Below, piece by piece: positions 1-31,719 of a stretch of DNA of 31,720 bases (its first letter is position 1; every line of letters starts with the position of its first letter). The stretch lies in IMG/VR virus record IMGVR_UViG_3300045988_054704, one strand, 5' to 3'. The position numbers were made by a program, and so were the translations under genes. The stretch is from a virus. The notes below the pieces were generated by a model. That model was not told where the DNA came from. It saw only the letters and a list, made by a program, of their open reading frames with translations, and did not search any database.

Positions 1-127
1 AGCATTACGCCAGGAGAAGCGGATCGAGGAAGAGCTGGAACGCTTAAAGCTGGATCGGATGCTTCCGGGAGCACTGGCAGCAGATGGGCTGCCAAAAAGC
101 AGCAACCATTCTGATCTGTCGGATTAT
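1..127. repeat. Left arm of terminal inverted repeat (partner 31594..31720)
   Basis: Positions 1..55 are the exact reverse complement of 31666..31720. Mismatches occur only at 56, 88 and 108 up to position 127, after which the two sequences diverge. The arm lies inside the regulator ORF. Confidence 0.95.
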
Positions 128-367
128 ATGGCGAAGATTGATGAACTGGAAAGAAAGCTGATCAGGCAGAGGGGAAAGAAAGTCCAGATTCGTACAGAAA
201 TCAGAGAGAGGATTGAAGAACTGGATAACGAGAAAGAAAAAGATGTGCTGACGAAACGATACATAGATTGTGAGGGATGGAACAGGATCTGTGATGAAAC
301 GGGATACAGATGGACACAGGTACACAGAAATCATTCAGAAGCTTTAAAAAAATTCAAAATGGTATAG
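2..367 (+). CDS. Late-gene transcriptional regulator, RinA/ArpU-like with a sigma region-4-type HTH (5' partial; ORF open to the window edge)
   Basis: The frame is open from nt 2. The C-terminus 'DVLTKRYIDCEGWNRICDETGYRWTQVHRNHSEALKKF' resembles a sigma-70 region 4 / RinA-ArpU HTH. It sits immediately upstream of the HNH and terminase genes. It is a paralog of 31327..31719. Confidence 0.6.
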   Translation, partial: ALRQEKRIEEELERLKLDRMLPGALAADGLPKSSNHSDLSDYMAKIDELERKLIRQRGKKVQIRTEIRERIEELDNEKEKDVLTKRYIDCEGWNRICDETGYRWTQVHRNHSEALKKFKMV

Positions 368-7991: not shown

Positions 7992-8369
7992 ATGGCATAC
8001 GCATCAATTGAGGATGTTTGGAAACGAAAAGGAACAGATATTTCGGATACAGATTATGTAACGGCACTCTTGGAGGATGCAGCGATCATCATTGATGCAT
8101 ATAACCACAATGCTACAGACGAGGCAAAGAAATTAGTGTCATGTAATATGGTTATCCGGACACTCGGAAGCAGAGAGGAAGGTGTACCTATTGGAACGAC
8201 ACAGACAACTACGACAGCAATGGTATATTCGCAGACCTGGACAAATGCAAATGGAAGCGGCGAATTGTATCTGACTAAATTGGATAAGAAAATCCTTGGT
8301 GTCGGGAATCGAATTGGCTATTTTAATCCATATTCGGATTTGATGCAGGAGGAAGAGGCTAATGATTAA
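7992..8369 (+). CDS. Head-tail connector (gp6 / SPP1 gp15-like)
   Basis: 'ASIEDVWKR...DISDTDYVTALLEDAAIIID' resembles the Phage_connect_1 N-terminus. It is the first neck gene after the capsid. Confidence 0.6.
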   Translation: MAYASIEDVWKRKGTDISDTDYVTALLEDAAIIIDAYNHNATDEAKKLVSCNMVIRTLGSREEGVPIGTTQTTTTAMVYSQTWTNANGSGELYLTKLDKKILGVGNRIGYFNPYSDLMQEEEAND

Positions 8370-8694
8370 AGGAATACCGGTGAAGCTCTACGAACGAACC
8401 GCAAGTGGGACAGATACATTCGGACATCCGATATATACAGAGACACCTGTGACCGTGGAAGACGTGTTGGTTGCTCCGGCATCGACAACAGAAGTGCTGG
8501 ATATGCTTAATATTACTGGAAAAAAAGCAGTCTACAATATCGCAATTCCAAAAGGAGATACGCACGACTGGCAAGACTGTAGAGTGGATTTTTTTGGCAC
8601 ATCATGGCGAGTAATTGGATTCCCACAGCAAGGAATTGAAGAAAATATTCCAGGAAGATGGAATCAGAGATGGATGGTGGAGCGTTATGGCTAA
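8362..8694 (+). CDS. Head closure / head-tail adaptor protein
   Basis: About 110 aa, in the second neck position, overlapping both neighbours. Confidence 0.5.
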   Translation: MIKGIPVKLYERTASGTDTFGHPIYTETPVTVEDVLVAPASTTEVLDMLNITGKKAVYNIAIPKGDTHDWQDCRVDFFGTSWRVIGFPQQGIEENIPGRWNQRWMVERYG

Positions 8695-8911
8695 AACGAA
8701 AGTTGAGTTAAATCGATCCGGTGTAAGAGAGTTGATGAAATCAGCAGAGATGCAGGCAATTTTGCTGGAACAGGCAAATCAAATATCATCAGATGCAGAG
8801 AAAGAGTCGTATGTGGCGCAAACGAGAGCGATTGTAAAAATAAATGGAGACGACGGCAACAATAGCTTGCTGAAAGCAATGGGTAGAAAAAATGATCGAG
8901 GAAAAAGTTAG
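8687..8911 (+). CDS. Neck/tail-joining hypothetical protein
   Basis: The ATG at 8687 ('MAKTKVELNRSGVRELMK') overlaps the upstream stop. The call is positional only. Confidence 0.4.
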   Translation: MAKTKVELNRSGVRELMKSAEMQAILLEQANQISSDAEKESYVAQTRAIVKINGDDGNNSLLKAMGRKNDRGKS

Positions 8912-9227
8912 AGAATATCTGGAAGACAAGCTTGATATTCCGGTAAGGATGGAAGAAGAACCGGGACTTCCGGAGGAATATGTACTGATTGAAAAGACTG
9001 GATCTGGCGAAGAAAATCATATTGCATCAGCAACTCTTGCTATCCAGTCTTATTCAGGATCCCTTTATGGGGCGGCATCACTCAATGAAAGAGTGAAAGA
9101 AGCAATGGAAAAAATTGTTGAAATGGATGATATCAGTAAGTGCCAGCTTAACAGCGACTACAACTATACGGATACAACAAGGAAGAAATATCGGTATCAG
9201 GCTGTATATGATATGGTTCATTTCTGA
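8892..9227 (+). CDS. Putative tail terminator / tail completion protein
   Basis: 111 aa, immediately upstream of the major tail protein. It occupies the same position as 23923..24258 in module B. Confidence 0.45.
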   Translation: MIEEKVREYLEDKLDIPVRMEEEPGLPEEYVLIEKTGSGEENHIASATLAIQSYSGSLYGAASLNERVKEAMEKIVEMDDISKCQLNSDYNYTDTTRKKYRYQAVYDMVHF

Positions 9228-9242
9228 TGAAGGAGGATAAAA

Positions 9243-9797
9243 ATGTCAGATGCTAAAAATGTAAGTACAGGTAAGCCGAAAGTAGGCGGCGCGATTTTTA
9301 GAGCACCGCTCGGAACAACATTGCCAACAGATGCAACCACAGCATTAAATGCAGCATTTAAGTCACTTGGATATTGCTCGGAGGATGGACTCACTAATTC
9401 TAATAGTCCGGAAACTGACAACAAAAATGCTTGGGGCGGCGACACTGTATTGAATATGCAGACCAGTAAGAAAGATAATTTTAAGTTTACGATGATCGAA
9501 GCCTTGAATGTAGAGGTCCTGAAGAGTGTTTACGGAGATGATAATGTTACCGGAACACTTGAGGAAGGGATTACGGTAAAAGTAAATGCAGATGAAGCGG
9601 AACAGAATGCGTGGGCTGTGGATATGATTCTGAAAGACGCAGTGAAGCGTATCGTTATTCCGTGTGCAAGCATTACGGAAGTCGGAGACATTGTATATAA
9701 GGACGATGATGCGATTGGATACGAGACAACGTTATCGGCAGTACCGGATGCGGATGGACAGACACATTACGAATATATTAAGGGGAATAAGAAATAA
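9243..9797 (+). CDS. Major tail protein (TP901-1 / Phage_tail_2-like)
   Basis: 184 aa starting '[19 protein letters not shown]', with strong RBS AAGGAGG. It is followed by the G/GT chaperone pair and the tape measure gene. Confidence 0.8.
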
Positions 9798-10060
9798 TGA
9801 AGGGAAAAACAAGCAGTGGTTTTGAGTATGAGTTAGATGAAGCGGCGTTGGATGATTATGAACTTCTGGAAGATCTGTGTGAAATGGATGCAGGAAATGT
9901 GGCGAAAATGAGTAGCATGCTGAATCGTCTGATTGGTACAGAACAGAAGGAGCGCTTAAAAGAACATTTGCGGACAGAAAATGGAAGGGTTCCAATGTCG
10001 AAAATGATGATCGAAATAGAGGAAATTTTCAAAAATGCAAAAGCAGGAAAAAACTCTTAA
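9797..10060 (+). CDS. Tail assembly chaperone (gpG-like)
   Basis: An acidic 87-aa protein between the major tail protein and the tape measure. It ends just after a slippery heptamer. Confidence 0.75.
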   Translation: MKGKTSSGFEYELDEAALDDYELLEDLCEMDAGNVAKMSSMLNRLIGTEQKERLKEHLRTENGRVPMSKMMIEIEEIFKNAKAGKNS

Positions 10061-10443
10061 TCCTCGCTCACATGCTTAATTTTGACAAGGATGCACTTTT
10101 GTGCGACCTTGCAGAAACATATCATATTTATGACTATAAGTCGTTACCGTGCAGAATGGTAGCGACTTTTTCTTGTGGGTTGAGGGAAAATTCAAGAATC
10201 AAAATGAAAATGGCAGGGATAGATCCTATACCGGAACAAATTCTTATGGCAGCTATTGCGGATGGAACACGTATGACCGCCTGGTTACAATCCGAGGATG
10301 GAGCGACTGGGAAAAACCGTCCGAAGTCATTGCTTGGAATGATCATAGGTGATGGAACGGAAAAATCCAAAGAAATTCAGACGTTTGATTCTGGAGAAGA
10401 TTTTGACAGAGAATGGGCGAGATTGACGGGAAAGGAGGGATAA
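9797..10443 (+). CDS. Tail assembly chaperone G-T fusion (via -1 frameshift at 10048..10054)
   Basis: The -1 frame is open from the slip site through 10443, and the tape measure gene starts at 10445. Confidence 0.65.
10048..10054 (+). promoter_or_regulatory. -1 programmed ribosomal frameshift site A_AAA_AAC
   Basis: The zero-frame codons GGA AAA AAC give X_XXY_YYZ = A_AAA_AAC. The -1 frame then reads ctc tta atc ctc gct cac atg, which is the frame of ORF 10072..10443. Confidence 0.7.
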
Positions 10444-10444
10444 G

Positions 10445-12313
10445 ATGGCTACGGAACTTGCAAAAGCGTATGTGCAGATCATACCATCGGCGGTAGGAAT
10501 TCAGGGAAGAATTCAAAAAGAAATAGAGCCGGAAGCAGACTCAGCCGGAAGTTCTTTTGGTGGGAAAATGGTTGGCATGATCAAAAAGGTTATTGCCGCA
10601 GCAGCAATCGGGAAAGCTCTGTCGGCGAGCATCAGTGAAGGTGCAGCACTCGAACAAAGTCTTGGTGGAATCGAAACATTATTTAAAGATTCTGCCGATA
10701 AAGTGAAAGCAAATGCGGCAAAAGCCTACCAGACAGCAGGAATGAGTGCAAATGACTACATGGAACTAACTACAAGCTTTTCAGCGAGCCTTCTTAGTTC
10801 CCTTGCTGGCGACACCTCCAAAGCTGCAGATGTGGCAGATATGGCAATGGTAGATATGTCTGATAATGCGAATAAGATGGGAACCAATATGGAAGACATC
10901 AAAAATGCATATCAGGGATTCGCCAAACAGAACTATACAATGCTGGACAACCTGAAGCTTGGATATGGTGGTACGAAGTCGGAGATGGAGCGTCTTTTGG
11001 CAGATGCACAGAAAATCAGTGGCGTGGAATACAATATTGATAATCTATCAGATGTCTACAGTGCAATTCACGTGATCCAGGGACAGTTGGATATTACCGG
11101 AACGACAGCAAAAGAAGCGGCAACGACTATATCTGGATCGTTCAACCAGATGAAAGCAGCGGCTAAAAATGTAATGGGAGAAATTGCTCTGGGAATGGAT
11201 GTAGGACCGGCACTTAATGAACTGGCGAATACGATCATAACCTTTGCAGTTGGAAATCTGCTTCCGGCAGTATGGAATGTTATATCTGCACTTCCATCAG
11301 CAATCGTTACATTTGTAACGGCACTCGGTCCACAACTGTTTGCTGCAGCGTCTGGACTGATTCCGCAAATTGCAAGCGGAATCACAACAGGAATACCGAC
11401 TCTTTATCAGAGCGCAATGCGGATTATGGATCAGTTTAATATCGGAATCCAGGAGCAACTCCCGATCTTGTTGCAGAATGGTGTGGATTTCATAACAAAC
11501 ATTGTGAATGGAATCTTGCAAAATTTACCGCAAGTAATAACGATGGCGGGCAATATTATTACATATTTTGCCAACACAATTATTTCTATGTTTCCGACTG
11601 TTTTGAGTGCAGGTGCATCATTGTTGCTGAAACTTGTAAATGGCATCATAAATAATTTGCCACAGATTGCCCAGGCAGCAGCGACTGCAATCGTGCGTTT
11701 TGTAGCGTCAATTGGTCAGAATCTTCCACAGATTCTTCAGAGTGGTATTACGATTATCGCTAAGCTGGCAGCAGGCTTGATACGTGCTATTCCGAATTTG
11801 GTTGGACAGATACCGGCAATTATCAGCGCAATTGTGAATGCTTTTACGAGCCAGAACTGGGGAAGTATTGGAATCAATATCATAAGCGGTATCGCATCCG
11901 GACTTCGTTCGGCGGCACATATGCTATGGGATGCTGTAAAAGGTGTTCTTGGTGGATTTAAAGAAAATGTTCTGGCATTCTTCGGGATTCACTCACCGTC
12001 ACGTTGGGGAATGTTTGTTGGAGAGATGATAGACACCGGTATTGCGAATGGACTTACCGGAAACACATCGTTGATCTCTAATGCTGCAGAAGAACTCCAA
12101 AAATCACTCAAGAAACCTGTCGGGACAAGCTTGGATTTTGCGGTTTCTGGAAGAAATAGCACTGAAAACGAGAACAATGCGCTCATTGAAAAACTGGAAC
12201 AGTTGTTGGAGTATTTGAAAACAACATCCAAACGAGGAGAAACTATCGTGATCAATCTGAATGACAGAGAGGTAATGAGAGTATTAAGAGAAATGGGGGT
12301 TGTGCTTGAATGA
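10445..12313 (+). CDS. Tape measure protein (622 aa)
   Basis: Ala/Gly/Ile-rich helical repeats, a C-terminal 'FGIHSPSRW' motif, and a position after the G/GT pair. Confidence 0.85.
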   Translation: MATELAKAYVQIIPSAVGIQGRIQKEIEPEADSAGSSFGGKMVGMIKKVIAAAAIGKALSASISEGAALEQSLGGIETLFKDSADKVKANAAKAYQTAGMSANDYMELTTSFSASLLSSLAGDTSKAADVADMAMVDMSDNANKMGTNMEDIKNAYQGFAKQNYTMLDNLKLGYGGTKSEMERLLADAQKISGVEYNIDNLSDVYSAIHVIQGQLDITGTTAKEAATTISGSFNQMKAAAKNVMGEIALGMDVGPALNELANTIITFAVGNLLPAVWNVISALPSAIVTFVTALGPQLFAAASGLIPQIASGITTGIPTLYQSAMRIMDQFNIGIQEQLPILLQNGVDFITNIVNGILQNLPQVITMAGNIITYFANTIISMFPTVLSAGASLLLKLVNGIINNLPQIAQAAATAIVRFVASIGQNLPQILQSGITIIAKLAAGLIRAIPNLVGQIPAIISAIVNAFTSQNWGSIGINIISGIASGLRSAAHMLWDAVKGVLGGFKENVLAFFGIHSPSRWGMFVGEMIDTGIANGLTGNTSLISNAAEELQKSLKKPVGTSLDFAVSGRNSTENENNALIEKLEQLLEYLKTTSKRGETIVINLNDREVMRVLREMGVVLE

Positions 12314-13149
12314 TTGAGATCAAATATGTGTGTTCCAATGGAGAGGAATATAATCTGATTGGTGATAAGATGAGAGCAACCTCCGGATATTTCCACGCTT
12401 ACGAATGGATACCAAATACTACAGAAAAAGAAATGGGAGTGGCGGTAAATTCTTTCACGAAAGAACCGGTGGTGTATGATATTACACTTACGGTGCGAGG
12501 GAAAGAATTTGAGAGAAAGCAGTTTCTGAATAAGCTTACCAATGCGTTTGAATATGATGTGGTGAATCTGTCACCTGGAAGGATTTATTATGGAAAATAT
12601 TACATTGACGGATATATAAAGAAATCGAGCAATGAGGTTTCAGGTGAAAATAATAGCAGAACAGATTGCAAGATAGAAATATACTGTCCGTACCCGTTTT
12701 GGTCAATGGAACAGGAACAGAGCTTTTATCCGGATTCGGCAAACAAAGGAGAAGCATACGGATTTTTGGAATATCCGTATGACTATCCATATGATTATTC
12801 AAGAAAAAGCGCTGGCACACAGAACTGGTTTATTGATCATTTTCGTGATAATAATTTTGAAATTGTGATATATGGACCATGTGCAGATCCAAGAATCATT
12901 ATCAATGATTATCCATATCAGATATATGAGACTTTGGAAAATGGAGAATACATTTTGATAAAGAGCAGGGATAAGACGATTACGAAACATCTTGGAAATG
13001 GAACGATCCAAAACATTTTTGCGAAAAGAGCAAAAGATAAAAGTGTGTTTTCTTTAATTCCGTCAGGCATGCTGACATTGAACTGGAGTGGCGAATTTGG
13101 TTTTGATATCAAAGTGTATAAGGAGAGGAGCGTGCCAGAATGGAGTTAA
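12310..13149 (+). CDS. Distal tail protein (Dit-like phage tail component)
   Basis: The first gene after the tape measure, with an ATGA overlap. It is a paralog of 16865..17707 (shared 'FLEYPYDY.YDYSR', 'IYGPC.DP.II.N.YPYQ'). Confidence 0.65.
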   Translation: MIEIKYVCSNGEEYNLIGDKMRATSGYFHAYEWIPNTTEKEMGVAVNSFTKEPVVYDITLTVRGKEFERKQFLNKLTNAFEYDVVNLSPGRIYYGKYYIDGYIKKSSNEVSGENNSRTDCKIEIYCPYPFWSMEQEQSFYPDSANKGEAYGFLEYPYDYPYDYSRKSAGTQNWFIDHFRDNNFEIVIYGPCADPRIIINDYPYQIYETLENGEYILIKSRDKTITKHLGNGTIQNIFAKRAKDKSVFSLIPSGMLTLNWSGEFGFDIKVYKERSVPEWS

Positions 13150-14144
13150 TCTACACAGATCCAAATGGTAAAGAACTTGGATATATCCTAAATGCAAATA
13201 TTGATATGGAAATCGGAGAGGATGAAAAGAACTCCATAAATGATTTTGAAATTGAATTTAAACGGTCAGGTTGGGATGGAACGATTGAATTTGGAAGCCA
13301 ACTGTATGTTCCTGATACGGAGTATGGTGGGATTGTACAGGAAATCTCGACAAGTACAAAGGCGAATAGCATTACCACAAAAGGGTATACGTGGCGTGGA
13401 ATGATGACAAAGAAGATTATTCAGCCTGGAAGTGGACAGGACTATGCAACGGTAGAAGGCGAACTGAATACAATCGTAAAGCAGAAAGTGCAGGAGGCTT
13501 TCCCAGGGCTTTTTTACGGCGTGAGTGAAGATACCGGTGTAGAAGTAACGAATTATCAGTTCGATCGGTATTGCACACTTCATGAAGGACTCCGAAAAAT
13601 GCTGCAGTCTGTTGGATATCGTATGGAAATTAAGTATATCCAGGGCGATAAATACGAAATGGGATACGTGCAGGTAAAAGCAGTTCCTATTGTAGATTAT
13701 TCATCGGAATATGAATTTTCAAATGATCAGAATATGAACTTCAAAATGGATGATAACAGAAGAGGCGTTAATCATTTGATTTGTCTTGGAAAAGGAGAAT
13801 TGAAAGATCGCCTGGTAATTCATCTGTATGTTGGCCAGAATGGGGAAATAGGACAGGAGCAGTATTTTAAAGGGACGGATGAAATTGTGGAAATCTACGA
13901 CAGTTCAGGATCGGAACGAGATGATCTCCTGAAAAATGGGATAAAAAAACTGGAAGAATCAAAGAATAAAACAGAATATGATATGACTATGGAGAAAATC
14001 GAAGGAAACATGGATGTTGGAGATGTTGTAGGTGGACGAGATTATCTTACCGGCGCAAGCATGAAGAAACCAATCGGACGTAAGATTTGGACAATTTCAG
14101 AGGGTAAAGAAAAAATAGAATATAAATTGGAAGGAGAGTCTTAA
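13140..14144 (+). CDS. Tail-tip protein, Siphovirus Gp37-like (Tal position)
   Basis: 334 aa, the second gene after the tape measure. It is a paralog of 15882..16874, roughly two-thirds identical by eye. Confidence 0.55.
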   Translation: MELIYTDPNGKELGYILNANIDMEIGEDEKNSINDFEIEFKRSGWDGTIEFGSQLYVPDTEYGGIVQEISTSTKANSITTKGYTWRGMMTKKIIQPGSGQDYATVEGELNTIVKQKVQEAFPGLFYGVSEDTGVEVTNYQFDRYCTLHEGLRKMLQSVGYRMEIKYIQGDKYEMGYVQVKAVPIVDYSSEYEFSNDQNMNFKMDDNRRGVNHLICLGKGELKDRLVIHLYVGQNGEIGQEQYFKGTDEIVEIYDSSGSERDDLLKNGIKKLEESKNKTEYDMTMEKIEGNMDVGDVVGGRDYLTGASMKKPIGRKIWTISEGKEKIEYKLEGES

Positions 14145-15040
14145 TGGATATCATCACAGGATATACAGGAAGTCCACATGTTACTGCTGAACAGGACAGA
14201 GATGTGAATATTGGAATTTTTGGAGCAGAATCATATGTTTTGCGAACTGGATCACGGTTAAAGGCTGAAGTGTCGTCAAATAATGAAATCAAGGTACGTG
14301 ATGGAGTTATCATGCATCAAGGGTGTGCTGCATCAATCAAAAAGAATACATATGATTCACTAACGATTGCAAATGGGTCACAGGGAATGAAGAGAGTAGA
14401 CCTTATCGTGGCACGATACAGCAGGGATCAGAACACAAAAGAAGAATCACTTGTGTTGAAAGTAATTCAAGGAACGCCAAAAGAAAGCGGTCCGGCAGTA
14501 CCGGGATATACTACAGGAGATATCCAAGCAGGGGATTTGATTGCGGACATGCCGTTGTATCAGGTAACTCTTAATGGACTTAATATTACAGAAGTGAAGC
14601 AGCTGTTTGCGACACAGGATTCGATTGCTGAATTAAGTAGCAATTTATTAAATGTAAAAGCAGATTTGACAAAAGCAAATAATAATATTGCGACCATAAA
14701 CAATAAACTGATTTCTATCGTAGAACGTGGAACCAAAAATAACTACAATTACACAAAATATTCCAACGGCGACATGGTTATGTGGAGTAAATATACTTGG
14801 AATACCAATCTTGCAACCAGTTGGTATAACTGGTATTTTGCTTCTAGTGCTGCGGTTGGTTTTCCAGTAGCATTCAAACAAGCGCCTTTAATTATAGTAT
14901 CTCCGGCAAAGACTAACGAACTGTATGGTCTTGGAGTTACCGAAGTGACTACAACCGGGTACAAGCTTACAGCATACAGTCCAAAGCAAGGAATGTGTTA
15001 TGTACAAGCTGATATGCTTATAATCGGAAAATGGAAATAA
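14144..15040 (+). CDS. Receptor-binding / tail fibre protein A (conserved N-terminus, variable C-terminus)
   Basis: The last gene of the operon. The first 168 aa align without gaps to 15043..15882; the rest diverges and ends in a small domain ('AVGFPVAFKQAP...MLIIGKWK'). Confidence 0.55.
   Translation: MDIITGYTGSPHVTAEQDRDVNIGIFGAESYVLRTGSRLKAEVSSNNEIKVRDGVIMHQGCAASIKKNTYDSLTIANGSQGMKRVDLIVARYSRDQNTKEESLVLKVIQGTPKESGPAVPGYTTGDIQAGDLIADMPLYQVTLNGLNITEVKQLFATQDSIAELSSNLLNVKADLTKANNNIATINNKLISIVERGTKNNYNYTKYSNGDMVMWSKYTWNTNLATSWYNWYFASSAAVGFPVAFKQAPLIIVSPAKTNELYGLGVTEVTTTGYKLTAYSPKQGMCYVQADMLIIGKWK
14628..14648. repeat. Inner inverted repeat, left arm (ctgaattaagtagcaatttat)
   Basis: A perfect 21-nt match to the reverse complement of 15378..15398. 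It encodes 'ELSSNL' at the exact constant/variable boundary of RBP A. Confidence 0.9.
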
Positions 15041-15042
15041 TT

Positions 15043-15882
15043 CTAATATGTTCCGATTGCAATATAGTCCATATAAAAAGCTTTATTTGTATATGCTGCA
15101 AAATATCCTAATCGAAGTTGGGAGATTCCATTCAAGGTTGTGGTTTTTCCAAGAATCATAACCCAATCGTCACTATTTTGAGTTATTGTACAACCTCTTA
15201 AAAATTTAAACGGTTTTGGAAATGTTGATTGTTCTATTTTGGTACTTACACCCGTATATCCAGTGCCATTTTTTTGCAATGAGGCATATACGTGAATTGT
15301 TCCGGCACATATTTGAATCCTATTTTTAGGGAATCGTATACAAATGCTTTTTGTGGATGAATCTATATAAGTTTCGTATAAATTGCTACTTAATTCAGGA
15401 AGCGTAGGAATTACCGTAAACATTTTATCCACCGACGTAACATTCAGTCCATCCAATGTTACTTTATACAGTGGCATATCTGCTACCAAATCTCCAGACT
15501 GAATATCTCCCGTTTTATACGTCGGTACTGCTGCCGTGCTTGCATTTGGTGTTCCCTGAATAACCTTCAGCATCACCTCTTCTATTTTTGTTTCCTCGTT
15601 CTTATTATATCTCGCCACAATAAGATCAATCCGTTTCATTCCCTGTGATCCGTTTGCGATTGTCACCGGATCATAAGTATTTTTCTTAATCACCGCCGTG
15701 CATCCCTGGATCACCAATACTCCGTCTCTGACTTTGATTTCGTTATTTGATACCAGTTCTGTTGCCAGCTGTGAGCCAGTTTTAAGAACAAATGATCCAG
15801 TATCAAAAATTCCTTCATTGACATCCCGGTCCTGCTCTGCCGTAACATGCGGCTTTCCGGTATACCCTGTAATGATTTCCAT
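15043..15882 (-). CDS. Receptor-binding / tail fibre protein B (conserved N-terminus, variable C-terminus)
   Basis: The N-terminal 168 aa are homologous to RBP A. The C-terminus is different ('...FPKPFKFLRG...MDYIAIGTY'). Confidence 0.55.
   Translation of the reverse strand: MEIITGYTGKPHVTAEQDRDVNEGIFDTGSFVLKTGSQLATELVSNNEIKVRDGVLVIQGCTAVIKKNTYDPVTIANGSQGMKRIDLIVARYNKNEETKIEEVMLKVIQGTPNASTAAVPTYKTGDIQSGDLVADMPLYKVTLDGLNVTSVDKMFTVIPTLPELSSNLYETYIDSSTKSICIRFPKNRIQICAGTIHVYASLQKNGTGYTGVSTKIEQSTFPKPFKFLRGCTITQNSDDWVMILGKTTTLNGISQLRLGYFAAYTNKAFYMDYIAIGTY
15378..15398. repeat. Inner inverted repeat, right arm
   Basis: The reverse complement equals 14628..14648. It is in the same codon phase in RBP B. 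Confidence 0.9.
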
Positions 15883-16874
15883 CAGCTTTCTCCTTTCAAT
15901 TTGTACTCAATCTTTTCTTCTCCATCCGTTATCTTCCAGATTTTCTTTCCAATTGGTTTCCGCATATATACTCCTGTCAAATAATCTCGACCGCCTACGA
16001 TATCTCCAATATCTATCTCGTCTTCCAACGTTTCCAATGTCAGATCGTATTCTATGGAATTCTTCGCTTTCTCCAGCCGTTCCGTTCCACCCTTTAACAG
16101 ATCCTCATATTCCGAACTTGAACTGTCGTAGATATCTGCAATCTCATCAACGCCTTGGAAGAACTGAGTCTGCCCTATTTTTCCGTTCTGGTCAACGTAT
16201 AAATGGATTACCAGTCGATCTTTGAGCTCGCCTTTTCCGAGACAAATCATATGATTGATACCGCGCTGATTGTTATCCATCGTAAAGTATAGACCGTTGT
16301 CATTTGAAAACTCGCATTCCACCGAACGATCCCTAATCGGAACTGCGCTGATCACAACATATCCTGACTCTTCTTTTTCTCTTTGAAAAAACTTGATATC
16401 CAGTCTGTATCCTACCGACTGCAGCATCTTTTGCAGTCCCTCATAGAGCGTGCAATATCTGTCGAATTGATAGTCTTTTACTTGTACCCCTGTATCTGCA
16501 TCACTTCCATAAAATAGCCCCGGGAACGCTTCCTTTACTTTTTCTCCCACGATCTCATTAAGTTCACCAGTTGCTGTTGCATAATCCTGTCCAGATTGCG
16601 GTTCAATGATCTTTTTCATCATCATTCCACGCCAGGTATATCCTTTCGCCGTAATGGTATTCGTCTTTGTGCTGGTTTTTATTTCCCGGACTATGCCTCC
16701 AAACTCTGTTTCCGGAACATAAAAAAAGCAGCCGTTCTCGACTGTTCCATCCCACTCTGACCTCTTATACTCAATCTCAAAATCATTCGTGGCTTCTTCT
16801 CCAATCTCCATATCAAGCGTTGTGTATACAACCCCAAGCTCTTTTCCTTTTGTGTCGGTATATATCAGATCCAT
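15882..16874 (-). CDS. Tail-tip protein, Siphovirus Gp37-like (Tal position)
   Basis: 330 aa, a paralog of 13140..14144 (shared 'GYTWRGMM.KKII.P.SGQDYAT', 'ICLGKGELKDRLVIHLYV'). Confidence 0.55.
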   Translation of the reverse strand: MDLIYTDTKGKELGVVYTTLDMEIGEEATNDFEIEYKRSEWDGTVENGCFFYVPETEFGGIVREIKTSTKTNTITAKGYTWRGMMMKKIIEPQSGQDYATATGELNEIVGEKVKEAFPGLFYGSDADTGVQVKDYQFDRYCTLYEGLQKMLQSVGYRLDIKFFQREKEESGYVVISAVPIRDRSVECEFSNDNGLYFTMDNNQRGINHMICLGKGELKDRLVIHLYVDQNGKIGQTQFFQGVDEIADIYDSSSSEYEDLLKGGTERLEKAKNSIEYDLTLETLEDEIDIGDIVGGRDYLTGVYMRKPIGKKIWKITDGEEKIEYKLKGES

Positions 16875-17707
16875 TTCGGTGCACCCCTCTCTTTGTAAAT
16901 GGTCAAATCGAACCCGAAAGTCCCATCCCAGTTAAGGATAAGTTCTCCCGAAGGAATCCGTTTAAATACACTGTTTTTCTTCTCTCTCTTTTCAAAAATA
17001 CTTTGAATCGTTCCATTACTCAGATATTTCATCACTTTCTTTTCACGGCTCCTGATTACAATATATTCTCCTGCTTCTAAGGTGTCGTTTACCTGATACG
17101 GATAACCATTTACAATAATCTTCGGGTCTACACACGGACCATAGATTGTCATTTCAAAATTACTGTCCCTGTAATGGTCAATATACCAATTTTCTGTCCC
17201 GGATTTCGGTCTTGAATAATCATATGAATAATCATACGGATACTCCAGAAATGCATAGTCCTCTCTTCTCTCAGCTGAATCCGGATAAAAGCTTTTCTTT
17301 TCCTCCATCACCCATACCGGGTATGGAGCATATATTTTAGCCTCAATCCGTTCCATACGGGTACGGCTGTCTTTCGCGCCTATTTCACTTCCGATCACGA
17401 AACATTTTATTTTGTAACCGTTCAGAAAAAGCGTTCCCGGAAACTTTCTGAAGATATCTTCTTCACACAGATCCGCAAAACGGTTTGCGTTTTCTGCTCT
17501 TTCCCTTTTATCACCGAGGAAATCAATGATCACTTTATAGGTTGCTGCGTCTCTTCTGAACTCTTCAACTTTCCTTCCCTGTGCCTGTTTCGTATCTTCT
17601 ACTTCCCATTCCGAATCATAAAGTCCGGATGTCCTGATTTTTGCGCGGATCTTTTTATCGCTTAATACAATTTCTTCCTGTGAACTTCCACTTAAATATT
17701 TAAGCAT
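16865..17707 (-). CDS. Distal tail protein (Dit-like)
   Basis: The ATG at 17707 overlaps the tape measure stop (ATGCTTAA). It is a paralog of 12310..13149. Confidence 0.65.
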   Translation of the reverse strand: MLKYLSGSSQEEIVLSDKKIRAKIRTSGLYDSEWEVEDTKQAQGRKVEEFRRDAATYKVIIDFLGDKRERAENANRFADLCEEDIFRKFPGTLFLNGYKIKCFVIGSEIGAKDSRTRMERIEAKIYAPYPVWVMEEKKSFYPDSAERREDYAFLEYPYDYSYDYSRPKSGTENWYIDHYRDSNFEMTIYGPCVDPKIIVNGYPYQVNDTLEAGEYIVIRSREKKVMKYLSNGTIQSIFEKREKKNSVFKRIPSGELILNWDGTFGFDLTIYKERGAPKWI

Positions 17708-20700
17708 TAAATACCACACCCCAATCCGACAATGTTCTTGTAACTTCTCGTTCGCCCAGGTAGGCTCTGATCTGTAGATCTTTCACTGCGTCCTTTATAA
17801 TGTTCCGAAGTGCTTTATACTGTGTATACTCGTTTTCAGCCATGTTTCCAAATGTCATGCTTGTACCGCTATAGTCAACCGCTTCTTTCACCGCATTCTG
17901 TGCCAGCAAAGAGTTTTCTGTCACACCATTTGCCAATCCCTGCATAGAATACTGTCCCATTCTCCAGAATACTTTCGATGGCGAATTGATTTCCAGTTTT
18001 TTCTTTGCCGTTGCGATTGCATCGCTTGCCACTCTGCTTGCCGCCGAGATAACTGCAGATCTTCCGTCCGAAATTCCATTCGCAAGACCAATAGAAAGAT
18101 TATATCCATATAACTGCGTCTTTGATGCCGTACATTGTGCTGCAAACACATTGATTGCTCCACTCGCTACACTTCTTGCTTCCGTTTTTACATTTGATTC
18201 TCCATTTTTCATCCCCTGGACAAGTCCAAGATCTACGTTTTTCCCAGATTCTCTTGTCTTTTTCGATGGTGACTGACATCCCAAGCCATTATTTACCGCT
18301 TCAACCGTCTTGACTCCCAGATCTTTACCGGCAGCATTTGCTTTTTCCTGTGCATTCTGCATTCCCTGAACCAATCCCATCACGGTATTTGTCCCACTTT
18401 CCTGCATAACAGATGTAAGACCATCCATTCCTCCTGCAATATTGGCAGCTCCAGACGTAAGTAGCTGCTGTCCCCATTCATTTGTCATTCCCTGAATGTC
18501 CACACTCTGGCTCCAAAGGTCATTCGCTTTTTTCAGTTCTTCATCTGTCATGGAATTGAACGCTGCAACATACCCGGATCCCTGTGGTCCCATCTCTGAC
18601 AACTTCTGCAAAATGCCCTGGTTAATTCCTCGATCAGCAAGAGCGGACAGATTTTGTTCCCATGCAGTCACGCCGTCTACCTGGCTTTGCATGTTTGCCA
18701 GCAAGTTCTCGGTCGAAATCTGCGTACCGGCATCAAACTCCTCAAACATATCCATCTGGGACTTCAGCGCACTCTGTACATTTTCCTGCATAGTAAGAAC
18801 ACTGTTTGTCACATTCACCGCCAGTTCCTGTTGTGATACTGACAAATTCTGATATGCTTCCAGTTCTTGACCTGCCATTGTAATACTGACCGAAGATTGC
18901 TCTGTCGCCTCAGTCTTTGCGCTGGTATTATTCTTTGTGGCTGCCGTATTATTGTTTGTCTCTTCCGTCATATCGGAGAGATAACTCATATACGGTTCCA
19001 TCTCGGCGTTTGCTTCTTTGATTGCATCATTTATCTCTTTTTGACTGTCCTTTGCCGTTTGCTTCGCATCATTGAGTTCCCGTTCATCGTCAGCCATCTG
19101 TCTTAACGCCTCTGTAACTGTAACTATATTCCCGTTATACTCAATCGTTGCTTCTGACTGATCCTGTGTGGCAGCGTAAAGTTCATCAACATTATCTGCA
19201 CCTTTTTTCAGTGCCTCGCTATACTTCTCCTGTGCTTCTTTCGTTGCCTCTGTCTTTTCCCTGAGTACATCATTTACTTCTGACCGCTTCGCTTCGATCG
19301 CCGCAAGCTTTTCTCCAATTTCGGAAACTTTGTTCTCTGCATCTGCTTTTTCAACTTCTGCATCCACCAGCTTTTCCACGCTGTCTTTCATTTTTTCCTG
19401 CGCAACCTGAATTTTCTGCATTTCCAAAGCACTCTTTATGTAGTTCTTCATCTCTTCCGAACTCATGCTTAATTTTCCGGTTGTCTCGTCAATCGCAAGT
19501 GACATTTCCGGAAACATGGTATTCAGTTCCATGACAATCGTTTTCATCCGGCTTTGCTGTTCTGTCGTCTGATTGGATTGTCCGGCAAGCTTTACAAGCT
19601 CATCTGTCAGGTTATTCGCCAGTGTTCCGCTTGCATTTACCTCTTCCATGGAAGAAGTCATATTCTGAGTTGCTTGTTTCAAGGCTTCGCTTGTTTCCGA
19701 TGCTTTGTCCTTCAGCTCGGAAGTGGACTGTATCAGCTCGTCCGTTTCACTGGTCGCATCCCCCATTTTGGATGCCAACACAGCCGTTACTCCGATCAGC
19801 GCCGTTACTCCTGCCACAACCAGTATTGCCGGATTCGCAGCCAATACTGCATTAAATCCTGCCTGCGCTACAGTTGCCCCTTCTGTTGCTGCTGTCTGCG
19901 CCACGGTTGCCGCTGTCTGCGTTGCTGTAGCTGCCGCCTGTGCTTCCTGCGCCACAGTAGATGCTGCTTCTGCCGTTGTCGCTGCAGTTCGTATTCCAAT
20001 CAGTTCCGCCGCCTTTTTTCCGAAATCAACCAGCGAGACCCCGGCATCTTTTACTTCAGAAATAAACTTTTTGCTCTTATTTACAACAAAAATACCACCG
20101 ATTGCAGTTCCCGCAAGCTCTGCCACCGGAACAATCGTTTCAAGATTGTCTGCAACCAGTTTAATTCCTTTTTGTGCCATTGGAAGATATTTCACAAGTA
20201 ATGGCTGTACAACATCCGCTTGCACCGTCCTTCCAAGAACCTTCCACTGGTTTGTGATACTGTCATACTTGATGTCCTTTACCTTTTCCATGGTTCCCTG
20301 GACATTTTTATAGGAATTATTTACGTTGTTCAGAGAAGTAATTACCTTCATGGCATTATCTTCTCCCAGCGCACTCCAGGTATCGCTTGCCAGTGTCAGT
20401 GCTTCCTGCTCATTCTTCATGCTTGCCAGATCAGAAATCACCGACTGGAACACTTCTTTTGTAGTTGCACTGCCATCATGCCACTTTTTAACAAGATCCT
20501 GTGTGCCGGCAGAAAATGATTTGATGTGATCATCTATTCTTCCGTCAGCAAGACTGTTTCCGAATTCCTTGACGTAGTCATTTACTTTATCCAGATTATA
20601 TGCTCCGGAGTTTAAACCGTTTTCAAGGATTGCAAACATCTCTTCCGCTGAAAATCCAGCCTGCGCCCACAGAGAAGAATATTCCGTAAGATTATCCGCA

Positions 20701-21770
20701 AGTTCTCCGGATTTATTTAACCCGTTTTGAGCTCCTTTTGCCATCAAATCGAATGCAGTCTTACCATCGATCCCCATATTTGTCACCAGTGCATCTGCGC
20801 CTCTGATTGATTCGCTCAGATCCATCCCAAATACGTCTTCCAATGCCATTCCGTTCTCTGCAAGCTCTTTGATTTTTGTCGGATCTGTCTCATTCGTATA
20901 CTGCTTCACCAACGCCATTGCACTTGCGGCTTCATCAATCGCATCTCCGTAACCACCTTTATACAGATTCTGCATTTCCTGTGAATAAGCTGCAGTTTCT
21001 CTTGCTGTTGCCCCTGTACTTGCCTGGAGTTTCTGCTGTGCATCTTGAAGCTCCAGCGTCCCCTGCACCGCATCTTTGAACACATTCGTTGCGAGACTTT
21101 TTCCGGCGTCTACCATTGTATTGATCAAGTTTGCCTTAATAATTTTCCCGGTACTGGTAATCTTTTCTGCAACATCATCTGTCTGTTTTCCAAACTTGTC
21201 AATACTTTTGGCGCACCCGTCTGTTGCTTTTTCTGCCTCTTCCAGATAGGCCGTATTCTCATTTACCGCTCTCGTTGCCTTGATTGTCTGTGCCTGTGCA
21301 TTATTTAACTGCTTCTGCCAGTCCTCCACTCTGTTTCCGGCTCTTTGGTAGGTGGCTTCACCTTTTTCCACCTTTTCCGTTAATTCACTGACTGCTTCCT
21401 GCTGCCGTGATAACGCTTCTTCTGAAACATCCGAAGACTGTTTCATTTCATCCAGTGTGCTTTGTGCCTGTTCCAGCTTTGTGCGGTACTCCTGAAGTTC
21501 TGTTCCAACACGTGCATAATCTTCCTGTGCATGTGTCAAACCTTTCCTTACTGCCTCCTCTTTTTCTACCTGCTTATCTAGCGTCCTTGTCAGGACCTCA
21601 TTCTTCTTACGCAATGTATCAACCGAGTTTGCATTTCCCGCCGTTTCCGCTTCTACAAGCTTCATTTCCGATTTCATTGTAGACAGGCTTTTATTGCACT
21701 GTGTCACCGCTGATCTGAATTCTTTTTCGCCATCGAGCGTAATGTATGCGCCCACTTTTTTCTTTGCCAT
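17700..21770 (-). CDS. Tape measure protein (about 1356 aa)
   Basis: A very long coiled-coil and Ala-rich protein with two hydrophobic segments and C-terminal 'CQSPSK' and 'INSPSKVFW' motifs. The likely start is the ATG at 21770 (RBS GGAGAG) rather than 21791, which abuts a terminator hairpin. Confidence 0.85.
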   Translation of the reverse strand: MAKKKVGAYITLDGEKEFRSAVTQCNKSLSTMKSEMKLVEAETAGNANSVDTLRKKNEVLTRTLDKQVEKEEAVRKGLTHAQEDYARVGTELQEYRTKLEQAQSTLDEMKQSSDVSEEALSRQQEAVSELTEKVEKGEATYQRAGNRVEDWQKQLNNAQAQTIKATRAVNENTAYLEEAEKATDGCAKSIDKFGKQTDDVAEKITSTGKIIKANLINTMVDAGKSLATNVFKDAVQGTLELQDAQQKLQASTGATARETAAYSQEMQNLYKGGYGDAIDEAASAMALVKQYTNETDPTKIKELAENGMALEDVFGMDLSESIRGADALVTNMGIDGKTAFDLMAKGAQNGLNKSGELADNLTEYSSLWAQAGFSAEEMFAILENGLNSGAYNLDKVNDYVKEFGNSLADGRIDDHIKSFSAGTQDLVKKWHDGSATTKEVFQSVISDLASMKNEQEALTLASDTWSALGEDNAMKVITSLNNVNNSYKNVQGTMEKVKDIKYDSITNQWKVLGRTVQADVVQPLLVKYLPMAQKGIKLVADNLETIVPVAELAGTAIGGIFVVNKSKKFISEVKDAGVSLVDFGKKAAELIGIRTAATTAEAASTVAQEAQAAATATQTAATVAQTAATEGATVAQAGFNAVLAANPAILVVAGVTALIGVTAVLASKMGDATSETDELIQSTSELKDKASETSEALKQATQNMTSSMEEVNASGTLANNLTDELVKLAGQSNQTTEQQSRMKTIVMELNTMFPEMSLAIDETTGKLSMSSEEMKNYIKSALEMQKIQVAQEKMKDSVEKLVDAEVEKADAENKVSEIGEKLAAIEAKRSEVNDVLREKTEATKEAQEKYSEALKKGADNVDELYAATQDQSEATIEYNGNIVTVTEALRQMADDERELNDAKQTAKDSQKEINDAIKEANAEMEPYMSYLSDMTEETNNNTAATKNNTSAKTEATEQSSVSITMAGQELEAYQNLSVSQQELAVNVTNSVLTMQENVQSALKSQMDMFEEFDAGTQISTENLLANMQSQVDGVTAWEQNLSALADRGINQGILQKLSEMGPQGSGYVAAFNSMTDEELKKANDLWSQSVDIQGMTNEWGQQLLTSGAANIAGGMDGLTSVMQESGTNTVMGLVQGMQNAQEKANAAGKDLGVKTVEAVNNGLGCQSPSKKTRESGKNVDLGLVQGMKNGESNVKTEARSVASGAINVFAAQCTASKTQLYGYNLSIGLANGISDGRSAVISAASRVASDAIATAKKKLEINSPSKVFWRMGQYSMQGLANGVTENSLLAQNAVKEAVDYSGTSMTFGNMAENEYTQYKALRNIIKDAVKDLQIRAYLGEREVTRTLSDWGVVFNA

Positions 21771-21791
21771 TTCTTCTCTCCAAACCGGCAT

Positions 21792-21819: not shown

Positions 21820-21824
21820 ATGCA

Positions 21825-31326: not shown

Positions 31327-31719
31327 CTATATCACAGGTTGAGTGTCGCATTCTATCGCATATTTAAATTTTTTCAATGCATCTGAATGCTTTTTATGCA
31401 CATACTGCCAGCAATACCCGGTTCTTGCACAGATTTCTTTCCATCTCATAAGATCTATGTAATGATAAGTCAGGATATCTTTCTCTGTCTCGTCTTCCAT
31501 CTGCTCAATTCTTTCCCTGATTTCAGTCCGGATCCTAACTCTTTTCTTTCTCTGTTCCACCAGTTTCCGTTCCTGTTCGTCCACTTCTGCTGCATAATCC
31601 GACAGATCAGAAAGGTTGCTGCTTTTTGGCAGTCCATCTGCTGCCAGTGCTCCCGGAAGCATCCTATCCAGCTTTAAGCGTTCCAGCTCTTCCTCGATCC
31701 GCTTCTCCTGGCGTAATGC
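31327..31719 (-). CDS. Late-gene transcriptional regulator, RinA/ArpU-like with a sigma region-4-type HTH (5' partial)
   Basis: The ORF is open to the window edge. The C-terminus is 'DILTYHYIDLMRWKEICARTGYCWQYVHKKHSDALKKF'. It is a paralog of 2..367. Confidence 0.6.
   Translation of the reverse strand, partial: ALRQEKRIEEELERLKLDRMLPGALAADGLPKSSNLSDLSDYAAEVDEQERKLVEQRKKRVRIRTEIRERIEQMEDETEKDILTYHYIDLMRWKEICARTGYCWQYVHKKHSDALKKFKYAIECDTQPVI

Follow-up and report, generated by a model that had tools for sequence, protein, structure and literature searches.

Does the perfect inverted repeat between two facing RBP genes of a viral contig bound a DNA segment that inverts, and do the two tail modules that meet there belong on one molecule? 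The stretch that we analyzed (the window) is an entire metagenome contig of 31,720 nt. We conclude that the repeated 21-mer is the recombination site of a multi-segment, phage-encoded shufflon with a tyrosine recombinase. The two facing tail modules probably come from separate molecules. The best joint explanation, which we consider likely, is that the repeat is a shufflon site and that the tail-to-tail join is a chimera of short-read assembly. The window contains the left arms of two phages, A and B, and the following features:

1-55, + strand: contig-terminal 55-mer, copy 1 (the reverse complement of 31666-31720)
1-14627, + strand: left arm of phage A, from Pfam and PHROG annotation
14144-15040, + strand: RBP_A, 298 aa
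14144-14647, + strand: constant N-terminal 168 aa of the phage A RBP, from alignment (PHROGs 9994 and 25635)
14628-14648, + strand: left site, an exact match to the 21-mer; the expression-site copy in the RBP gene of phage A
14638-14643, + strand: putative left crossover core TAGCAA, from its position within the family consensus
14648-15040, + strand: cassette A, the C-terminal 130 aa of RBP_A and the stop codon, from translation (a coiled-coil neck and a head domain)
14649-15377, no strand: invertible segment, 729 bp, with two tail-to-tail cassettes; relatives carry both orientations
15043-15378, - strand: cassette B, the C-terminal 111 aa of RBP_B and the stop codon, from translation
15043-15882, - strand: RBP_B, 279 aa
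15378-15398, - strand: right site, an exact match to the 21-mer; the expression-site copy in the RBP gene of phage B
15379-15882, - strand: constant N-terminal 168 aa of the phage B RBP, from alignment
15383-15388, - strand: putative right crossover core TAGCAA, read on the minus strand
15399-31720, - strand: left arm of phage B, from Pfam and PHROG annotation
31666-31720, - strand: contig-terminal 55-mer, copy 2 (an exact match to copy 1)

Each RBP gene lies directly after genes for TMP, Dit, and Tal, which is the receptor-binding position in siphophages, and the genes directly upstream match PHROG 33 (Dit) and PHROG 538 (minor tail protein) in both arms. The arm of phage A matches L185 at 99.98% identity and L001 at 100%. 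(Labels of this form denote related contigs or loci that we compared with the window.) It encodes a DUF1492 protein, terminase, SPP1-type portal, Tad2-like protein, capsid, and tail tube, and it ends with TMP (622 aa), Dit, a Tal-like protein, and the RBP N-terminus. This TMP was named from its position and size and has no match to a TMP family in Pfam. The arm of phage B, which is 99.96-99.98% identical to L003 and L011, encodes a DUF1492 protein, small and large terminase, portal, ClpP protease, and HK97 capsid, and it ends with TMP (1363 aa, PhageMin_Tail), Dit, a Tal-like protein, and the RBP N-terminus.

When we aligned the two RBPs, they matched without gaps for 168 amino acids (~69% identity), up to ELSSNL, and then diverged, as a preliminary description of this DNA had claimed. 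It had also stated correctly that the 729 bp between the repeats holds just the two C-terminal domains, tail to tail, with the stop codons 2 nt apart. The C-terminal domain is presumably the part that binds the receptor. Cassette A is the one part of the RBPs with matches to tail fibers: its C-terminus is similar to PHROG 2712 (tail fiber, E = 7e-11) and weakly similar to the side fiber of F2-pyocin (E = 0.003). The RBPs had no match in Pfam, and a search of the sequences in the PDB with a profile of 15 diverse N-terminal domains yielded just a spurious, repeat-driven match to a flagellin-hook IN-motif protein. A single-sequence AlphaFold model of RBP_A had a mean pLDDT of 31, so we did not use it. 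The collection of cultured phages held no close relative; the top match to the RBP N-terminus was from Clostridium phage phiCs5676-1 (37.5% identity). A scan of a genome collection found just two distant relatives, with 66-67% identity across the RBP N-terminus, in Coprococcus comes MSK.16.63 and in a Mordavella MAG, which were an early pointer to the host taxon.

By direct pattern search, the window has exactly two copies of the 21-mer CTGAATTAAGTAGCAATTTAT (14628-14648 on the + strand and 15378-15398 on the - strand), with no third copy even if up to 3 mismatches are allowed. Two matches were reached in 0 of 100 shuffles. The codon phase is the same in both RBP genes, which bears out the earlier report of a perfect inverted pair at the boundary of the constant and variable parts. 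(An automated repeat search of 12-18 kb missed the 21-nt pair, which the direct pattern search recovered.) No exact match between the two tail modules is longer than the 21-mer; the next-longest runs, which had been put at about 14-17 nt by eye, are 17, 17, 16, 15, and 14 nt. In simulations, a run of 21 nt within a homologous stretch of 504 nt with 68% DNA identity has P ~ 0.03-0.06, so the argument from run length is weak and we did not rely on it. This mild significance is compatible with the alternative that the preliminary description had raised, in which the 21-mer is a run of conserved linker codons (for ELSSNL) at a boundary where C-termini are exchanged in the course of evolution by ordinary mosaic homologous recombination, with no site-specific inversion. 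Indeed, the peptide that the 21-mer encodes is conserved and lies at a domain boundary, and phages with divergent N-termini share cassettes. The window by itself is no proof that the repeat functions as a site; the proof, to the extent that sequence comparison gives it, comes from the relatives.

About 190 related loci carry the site, with up to four copies each. The site is a 19-bp asymmetric sequence (consensus CTGAAYTAAR-TAGCAA-WTT, spanning 14628-14646 in the window) with an invariant 6-bp core, TAGCAA. Across 190 unique sites, positions 6 and 10 track the outer flank (mutual information of 0.79 and 0.83 out of 0.89 bits), and positions 17, 18, and 20 onward co-vary with the cassette. Because positions 6 and 10 follow the flank and positions from 17 onward follow the cassette, the crossover is bracketed within TAGCAA. 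The orientation of the sites alternates strictly in all 94 of the 94 loci with at least two sites, and 297 of the 319 sites lead into an in-frame ORF that is 60 amino acids or longer. The cassettes at these sites fall into ~23 families.

In the natural locus, as found in prophages of Coprococcus comes and related Lachnospiraceae, the gene with the constant 168-aa N-terminus follows genes for Dit and a Tal-like protein, and the site lies in the final codons of the constant part (ELSSNL). The preliminary description had suggested checking relatives for the 21-mer at their RBP domain boundaries, and the site is present at that same boundary. Downstream of this expression site are a tail-to-tail pair of cassettes, the recombinase gene, and a second pair of cassettes; the shufflon is followed by tail-accessory genes, genes for holin and endolysin, and then host DNA. 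For example, contigs of phage B have four sites (+,-,+,-) in the arrangement F1 / cassB >< cassA / F2-rec-F3 / cassC >< cassD / F4, where slashes mark the sites. The pairings of flanks and cassettes are permuted from contig to contig. Complete loci have four sites, four cassettes, and three invertible segments, while the window has two sites only. Since it has four sites and three invertible segments, the natural locus is a shufflon.

The segment in the window is found in the opposite orientation in relatives. It is 99.3-100% identical to a reversed copy behind the N-terminus of RBP_B in L003-L012, and it occurs in both orientations behind the F1A, F1B, F2, F3, and F4 flanks. The junctions expected from inversion, which the preliminary description had proposed looking for, were found in assemblies from several samples (L114, L118, L119, and L098) and as exact proteins. 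Up to 14648, L114 and L118 match the window at 99.9-100% identity (100% over 12147-14648 for L114); from there, their segment is inverted. On the other side, L098 matches phage B at 99.7% identity down to 15378 and continues with the inverted segment. The fusion of the RBP_A N-terminus to cassette B, which is the predicted product of inversion, is identical to a protein from Coprococcus comes (WP_346997825.1) that is encoded on 94 contigs. The other products that we built in silico, fusions of the RBP_B N-terminus to cassette C (53 contigs), cassette D (26 contigs), and cassette A (1 contig), likewise exist as exact proteins. In-frame chimeras of this kind had been postulated in the preliminary description. 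More broadly, the N-terminus of RBP_A (at 98-100% identity) is fused elsewhere to cassettes A, B, and C and to at least 7 further C-termini. This evidence for switching is a comparison of assemblies from different samples, and part of the apparent switching could be due to differences that are fixed between strains and not to ongoing inversion.

These comparisons make conserved linker codons with ordinary recombination very unlikely, and we reject a conserved linker as the sole explanation. The 19-bp site is also kept at three flanks that are non-coding or not expressed (F2, F3, and F4), always in alternating orientation. Backbones that are nearly identical (99.7-100%) differ in the orientation of the segment, and the breakpoints coincide exactly with the site. 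And the sites enclose a tyrosine recombinase gene, which some contigs carry in inverted orientation.

This gene encodes a 329-aa, Xer-like protein that matches PF00589 and PF13495. Its top family matches are XerA, XerC, and XerD, and its R-K-H-R-H-Y residues align with those of XerD, but it scores below the NCBIfam cut-offs of every named Xer family. It has a SAM-like core-binding domain and a catalytic domain and no others. In 45 loci, the gene shares the strand of the RBP gene; in 6, it is on the other strand. This protein presumably catalyzes the inversions. The window itself has no recombinase gene, as had been noted at the outset: we found none by tblastn with the relatives' recombinase or by Pfam scans of the end genes and the tail genes. 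(We also considered Terrisporobacter phage TPELB_ph1, which has an Xer-like "integrase" between its tail genes and holin, and dropped it: it has no inverted cassettes or convincing repeats.)

The preliminary description had likened the layout to the invertible segments of Mu and P1 and to shufflons. With a constant N-terminus and two facing C-terminal cassettes between inverted repeats, the window does look like a G segment, and one might imagine a Mu G/Gin- or P1 C/Cin-type switch, with a single segment and a serine invertase adjoining it or encoded elsewhere. But no serine invertase was found in the window or adjoining the segment in any relative, the gene between the sites encodes a tyrosine recombinase, and there are four sites and four cassettes in the natural locus. 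We therefore consider a switch of this type to be extremely unlikely. The parts of the analogy that hold are site-specific inversion and the shufflon; the mechanism and layout of Mu G/Gin do not. The preliminary description had also proposed looking nearby for a serine invertase or an Rci-like recombinase; a recombinase does adjoin the segment in relatives, and it is of the tyrosine type. The sole gene of the resolvase family that we saw is in L183, beyond the lysin and at the end of the prophage, and it looks like the prophage's integrase, separate from the recombinase of the shufflon.

We propose that strand exchange by the recombinase takes place within the invariant TAGCAA core, between any two inverted sites, at cleavage positions that we infer from the sequences. 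Such an exchange would flip a single segment or the whole array and would place the constant N-terminus in frame with another C-terminal cassette. Just the cassette at the expression site would be translated, and swapping the C-terminus would change which receptor the phage binds.

If the site belongs to a shufflon, why does the window have two tail modules and no recombinase? In other contigs, phage A and phage B each run on past the segment, with a recombinase gene, additional cassettes, and lysis genes of their own. L185 (102 kb, 29x coverage) matches positions 4144-15398 of the window at 99.98% identity; beyond 15398 come a recombinase gene of its own, cassettes E and F, genes for holin and a GH25 lysin, and host genes. 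L092 likewise tracks the window through 15398 and then enters the recombinase gene, and L092 and L186-L189 all share the continuation of L185. Phage B continues into its own shufflon as well, including in contigs of 378-395 kb that have long-read-style names (L181 and L187). The window has one segment (cassettes A and B) between the expression-site copies of two phages, and no recombinase. Most likely, a short-read assembler followed phage A into a shared stretch of 771 bp (~100% identity) and left along the reverse complement of phage B.

Several observations suggest that the contig has such a chimeric origin. Its terminal inverted repeat of 55 nt is exact, with the first mismatch at position 56, and is the signature of a k=55 graph. 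L001 and L002, which are 100% identical to the window, both end at 15375, one base before the SNP that distinguishes the copies of cassette B that are linked to phage A from those that are linked to phage B. (The SNP haplotypes of the segment put the branch at 15376, which fits either a chimera or a real crossover.) Other contigs fold back on themselves (L004, B/B, and L177, A/A), so assemblers do fabricate this topology. In addition, a loop is duplicated in L175, and fusions of two phages occur with other partners (L191, A/C; L097; and L117).

Alternatively, the join could be real. In a double lysogen, the shufflon recombinase might have joined a site in prophage A to a site in prophage B, by inversion between co-oriented prophages or by deletion between facing ones. 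The two left arms would then be connected through a single segment that they share, and later flips would swap heads between the tail modules. Both phages have the same site, the DNA of their recombinase segments is ~94% identical, and the geometry is compatible with an ordinary inversion reaction. Because the two phages have cassettes in common, at 99-100% identity, and have the same host flank in some contigs (L172 vs. L006), it is plausible that they reside together. The segment's haplotype in the window matches that of phage B (L011) throughout, which fits a crossover at the left site. Also, contigs that fuse two phages recur with different partners (L191, A/C; L097; and L117, besides the window), and they do so across several assemblies and two assemblers, as a real event between prophages would predict.

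On the other hand, the arrangement is absent from the contigs with long-read-style names (L181 and L187), and all of the long contigs of phage A or phage B enter their own recombinase and lysis module. The sister assemblies stop at the branch point, and the self-complementary 55-nt ends are typical of a walk through the graph. A molecule like the window would have no genes for lysis, lysogeny, or replication from either phage. A search for the reciprocal product, which would be a contig with two recombinase genes, turned up just L175, which is a tandem duplication of a loop and not the reciprocal arrangement. Overall, we think that a real join is unlikely. The earlier idea that inversion exchanges heads between the two tail modules presupposes the join of two phages, which is most likely a chimera of assembly.

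A related possibility is that the recombinase acts between prophages as well as within them, so that the site is a portable joint. Phages A and B are ~69% identical to the left of the site, 99-100% identical within the segment, and ~94-98% identical farther to the right, and their structural modules are otherwise unalignable. This reading fits because the identity changes sharply at the site, but we judge it to be quite unlikely. If true, unrelated head and tail modules (SPP1-type vs. HK97/ClpP-type) would trade the whole right arm, that is, the cassettes, the recombinase, and the lysis genes. Double lysogens would yield real tail-to-tail fusions, and two tail modules would draw on one pool of cassettes.

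Whether or not the join is real, the carriers of this shufflon are prophages of gut Coprococcus. Coprococcus comes and related Lachnospiraceae are abundant commensals of the human gut, and to our knowledge, almost no phages that infect them have been cultured. A shufflon with ~20 families of cassettes, shared by several lineages of prophages, would be a main determinant of which strains these phages can adsorb to. The locus also repeatedly gives rise to viral contigs that are broken or chimeric in gut metagenomes (fold-backs, loops, shortcuts that omit the recombinase, and fusions of two phages), so catalogs built from short reads may list false "genomes" like the window. Finally, the 19-bp site and the 329-aa recombinase are candidate tools and could be tried in building invertible switches in Clostridia.

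How does this shufflon compare to known systems? The G segment of Mu (Gin), the C segment of P1 (Cin), and the Min system of p15B are inverted by serine invertases with Fis-dependent enhancers. As in those systems, the constant N-terminal part lies outside the invertible DNA and the alternative C-terminal parts lie inside, and like p15B Min, our system has multiple segments. Unlike them, it has a tyrosine recombinase, and the sites are unrelated.

The shufflon of R64 and other IncI1 plasmids has a tyrosine recombinase (Rci), several inverted sfx sites, and alternative C-terminal cassettes for pilV. One cassette is expressed, and the site consists of one conserved arm and a short core. The Coprococcus system shares the tyrosine recombinase, the several inverted sites, the single constant N-terminal gene, the single expressed cassette, and a site with one conserved arm and a short core, and in the relatives' complete loci, four sites of alternating orientation bound three invertible segments. 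However, the target of the R64 shufflon is the pilus adhesin PilV, while here it is a phage tail protein encoded after TMP, Dit, and a Tal-like gene. Also, the recombinase gene is embedded in the array here, and its best family matches are XerA, XerC, and XerD (all below their cut-offs).

Among gut phages, the BV01-like phages of Phocaeicola vulgatus have a tail-fiber shufflon with three cassettes and six isoforms, and all of the configurations are seen in read data (2026 preprint, PMC13596623). Judging from its description, that system is also a multi-cassette shufflon at the distal end of a tail-fiber gene, flanked by a recombinase, in a temperate phage of the gut. Its hosts are Bacteroidota, and its motif is 10 bp (TGGGAGAACT).

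The closest kind of system that we identified is not the Gin-type serine switch of Mu; rather, our system resembles the Rin shufflon of prophages of Bifidobacterium breve and B. longum (Mavrich et al. 2018, PMC6109161). The likeness to Rin/Rc is one of described architecture; our search of the PDB with the N-domain profile did not match the RBP of phage 1358, which Rc resembles. The hosts differ (Bacillota here and Actinomycetota for Rin), and so do the sites: CTGAAYTAARTAGCAAWTT here, and TTCCCTAACCC for rix. The recombinase gene here is in the middle of the array, within its own invertible segment, while Rin's flanks the cassettes at the far end. Also, the cassettes here come in tail-to-tail pairs, with stop codons that are 2 nt apart or overlap slightly. 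Nevertheless, both systems are in prophages of Gram-positive gut bacteria and sit in the tail module of a siphophage. The invertase of the Rin system, an "armless" XerD-like tyrosine recombinase, is separate from the prophage's integrase, and multiple inversions between genomes were reported (PMC6109161); here too, an armless Xer-like tyrosine recombinase is encoded next to the RBP cassettes, separately from the integrase. Both systems have a short asymmetric site at which alternative C-terminal cassettes of ~100-130 amino acids are fused in frame, and the constant N-terminus of the RBP has the same length, 168 residues, in Rin (PMC6109161) as in the Coprococcus prophages.

The window consists of two different siphophage "left arms", placed head-on, each of which ends in an RBP gene:

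1-15040, + strand: arm A, with a DUF1492 protein, terminase, SPP1-type portal, Tad2-like gene, capsid, 622-aa TMP, Dit, Tal-like protein and RBP
15043-31720, - strand: arm B, with a DUF1492 protein, small and large terminase, portal, ClpP protease, HK97 capsid, 1363-aa TMP, Dit, Tal-like protein and RBP
14144..15040, + strand: RBP_A, 298 aa
15043..15882, - strand: RBP_B, 279 aa

The arms can be aligned only over Dit, Tal and the N-terminal part of the RBP (~69%). The first 168 aa of RBP_A and RBP_B, up to ELSSNL, form a gap-free alignment, beyond which the two diverge; their stop codons are 2 nt apart. At the end of the shared part is the 21-mer CTGAATTAAGTAGCAATTTAT, which a direct pattern search located at only two places in the window, 14628-14648 (+) and 15378-15398 (-), as the preliminary description had reported. 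Searching the whole window with up to 3 mismatches gave no further copy. No exact match between the two tail modules is longer than the 21-mer (the second is 17 nt). Because the N-terminal DNA of the two RBPs is 68% identical, a run of 21 nt has P ~0.03-0.06, so its length taken alone would be only mildly significant.

The window lacks genes for lysis, lysogeny and replication. It also has no recombinase gene, as previously claimed (by tblastn with the relatives' recombinase and Pfam analysis of the end and tail genes). Its ends (1-581 and 31140-31720) are inverted copies, 83% identical over 588 nt, and encode DUF1492 proteins (59..367, +; 31327..31662, -), so phages A and B also converge upstream of their structural modules. 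A 164-aa phage A protein (5741-6235, +), encoded between the head-morphogenesis gene and the scaffold and capsid genes, has a Tad2-like domain (PF11195, Thoeris anti-defence 2; E 1e-24). The phage A Tal-like gene contains a 23-nt tandem direct repeat (13703-13748, +; 83% identical). The phage B tape measure has 1363 aa in the window (17700-21791) and other contigs, versus 972 aa in contig L005 (5265-8183); this looks like an internal length polymorphism, which would alter tail length if real.

Related contigs that encode exactly RBP_B (L003-L012) carry the same 729-bp segment directly after the site, at 99.3-100% identity, as cassB and cassA (the window's two alternative C-terminal parts) tail to tail. 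Downstream are three additional sites, and the four are oriented +,-,+,-. The phage B locus thus reads: flank F1 (RBP-N), cassB and cassA, flank F2, a 329-aa tyrosine recombinase, flank F3, cassC and cassD (also tail to tail), and flank F4. Beyond F4 are tail-accessory genes, a GH25 endolysin (and, in phage A contigs, a holin), and then host genes. The pairing of flanks with cassettes varies between contigs:

Cassette adjoining each flank in related contigs
L003: F1-B, F2-A, F3-C, F4-D
L005: F3-D, F4-C
L181 and L183: F1-C, F3-D, F2-A, F4-B
L182: F1-C, F2-D, F3-B, F4-A

The pairings are the permutations expected if inversion can take place between any pair of inverted sites. By scanning viral and metagenome collections, we gained ~160 further loci from human gut samples. 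All 94 loci with two or more sites had strictly alternating site orientations, and 297 of 319 sites opened an in-frame ORF of 60 aa or more. The recombinase gene shared the strand of the RBP in 45 loci and lay on the other one in 6. The cassettes form ~23 families.

In six contigs (L006, L008, L009, L172, L173 and L021), the proximal segment is followed directly by F4, without the recombinase or the second cassette pair. These could be "locked" deletion derivatives, formed by recombination of directly oriented sites, or else assembly shortcuts. After the lysin gene, L172 (phage A) and L006 (phage B) have a common right arm and host flank (SdpI, glyoxalase, ApbA, MurJ; 98.5% identity), while other phage A contigs adjoin SASP and carbamoyl-phosphate synthase genes instead. 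One possibility is an attachment site common to both phages; another is that L172 is itself chimeric.

The window's own segment occurs in both orientations. Contig L114 is 100.000% identical to 12147-14648 and then has cassB first, as do L118 (99.9% identity) and L119, whose phage A backbone is more diverged (94% identical). Conversely, L098 matches phage B at 99.7% over 9.2 kb down to 15378 and then has cassA first. We also assembled the inversion products in silico from the window and sought them as exact proteins. The phage A N-terminus joined to cassB is WP_346997825.1 from Coprococcus comes, found in 94 contigs (the longest is 210 kb). The phage B N-terminus was joined exactly to cassC in 53 contigs, to cassD in 26, and to cassA in 1. 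More broadly, phage A N-termini (98-100% identical) were joined to cassettes A, B, C and at least 7 other C-termini. By comparison between samples, rather than within one population, we conclude that the 729-bp segment inverts.

The preliminary description had proposed a Mu-like invertible segment that forms in-frame chimeras. The inversion and the chimeras hold up; the Mu-type enzyme class and architecture do not, as relatives have a four-site locus with a tyrosine recombinase between the sites, near the element, where the preliminary description had advised looking for one. This protein has PF00589 (E 3e-34) and a SAM-like core-binding domain. Among named families it comes closest to XerA, XerC and XerD, each time below the NCBIfam cut-off, and the closest solved structures are a XerC-like protein (4a8e) and XerD. 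The catalytic R, K, H-x-x-R, H and Y align to XerD, so it is a tyrosine recombinase and not a Gin/Cin-type serine invertase. The gene is frameshifted or split in L003 (11368-12321; 317 aa with an aberrant C-terminus) and L181 (9349-10339; 132 + 190 aa), which reflects either sequencing errors or inactivated switches. The cultured Terrisporobacter phage TPELB_ph1 encodes a Xer-like "integrase" (PP197244.1 17645-18640; 35% identical to the shufflon recombinase), between a 577-aa hypothetical tail-region gene and the holin, as well as a separate large integrase. We found no inverted cassettes and no convincing site repeats in TPELB_ph1.

Across 190 unique copies, the site consensus is T-CTGAAYTAAR-TAGCAA-WTT. 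Positions 7-9 are invariant, while positions 11-16 (TAGCAA) were demanded by our search filter. Variable positions 6 and 10 are inherited with the non-cassette flank, and positions 17, 18, and 20 onward with the cassette, which places the probable strand exchange inside TAGCAA (14638-14643 and 15383-15388). Tyrosine recombinases have overlap regions of 6-8 bp, which the 6-bp TAGCAA fits. The window's two sites are identical over 21 nt because both are F1-type (T at 6, G at 10) and both cassettes start with AT.

Our best estimate is that the recombinase would bind the conserved 10-bp arm and the core at two inverted sites, exchange strands within TAGCAA, and invert the DNA between them. Flipping the proximal, distal or recombinase segment, or the whole array, would fuse the constant 168-aa N-terminus to one of four (or more) cassettes, and the remaining cassettes would be silent. 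At F4, for example, there is an in-frame stop just 5' of the site. The expressed gene follows Dit and the Tal-like protein, which is the usual position of a siphophage RBP. In translation, coiled-coil-like heptads stand at the start of cassettes A, C and D, ahead of a presumed head domain, and the C-terminus of cassette A resembles those of tail fibres. By analogy, cassette switching may alter host specificity.

The idea that two tail modules share one segment fared less well: the facing A and B modules are most probably an assembly chimera, and each phage continues into a shufflon of its own. In L185 (102 kb at 29x coverage), which is 99.98% identical to 4144-15398 and has the segment in the same orientation, the sequence goes on to F3, the recombinase, F2, cassF and cassE tail to tail, F4, holin, GH25 lysin and host genes. 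The layout is the same in L092 and L186-L189, and L172-L179 have the same phage A prophage with the opposite orientation. Phage A evidently has a separate shufflon. In L181 and L187 (378-395 kb, with long-read-style names), the shufflon is complete and there is no facing RBP.

The window is itself a full contig of 31,720 nt. Its first and last 55 nt are exact inverted copies in register, and identity first breaks at position 56. This looks like a k=55 de Bruijn path that begins at a vertex and finishes at its reverse complement. L173, a phage A contig made by SPAdes, has the same first base, and L001, from MEGAHIT with k=113, begins 58 nt (113 minus 55) beyond it. Both L001 and L002 match the window at 100% and end at 15375, one base short of a SNP at 15376. 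Cassette B copies adjoining phage A N-terminal or recombinase flanks have A at 15376 in 12 of 13 scored (L092, L114, L172-L177, L179, L185, L186, L188, L189; L187, which has a differing segment, was left out). The window and most phage B copies have G, as does L154 (a recombinase flank, phage not assigned). The branch in the assembly graph thus falls exactly at the window's passage from A to B. Also, the stretch common to A and B is 771 bp, which exceeds typical short-read inserts, so the link would be beyond any single read or ordinary read pair.

That assemblers create this topology here is demonstrated by self fold-backs (L004, B facing B; L177, A facing A), shortcuts without the recombinase (L006, L008, L009, L172, L173), and two-phage contigs with other partners (L191, phage A facing a third phage; L097; L117). 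L175 (11237-15141) has the recombinase gene and the cassE/cassF segment twice in tandem, which looks like a graph loop walked twice. Recombination between prophages in a double lysogen is mechanistically possible and could have made a real tail-to-tail join, but a chimera is much the likelier reading. Another phage A contig, L190, is 99.95% identical to the window up to 15241 (L190 ~11098), inside cassette B, and then jumps to host genes (RNase Y and others). In practice, these results are a warning to watch for chimeric viral contigs at shufflon loci.

Programmed inversions are known to target tail-fibre genes as a class (PMC9881135), and a tail-fibre shufflon has been reported in BV01-like Phocaeicola phages (PMC13596623). 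In the literature we searched, we found no published account of this shufflon in Coprococcus or Lachnospiraceae phages. It differs from Mu in enzyme class and architecture, and works like the R64 shufflon. Most alike in operation is the Rin shufflon of Bifidobacterium prophages, in which the tyrosine invertase is likewise Xer-like and armless, the constant RBP N-terminus has 168 residues and the cassettes have ~100 aa (PMC6109161). Unlike in Rin, the cassettes here are paired tail to tail, the site sequence is different, and the recombinase gene is embedded in the array and is itself invertible.
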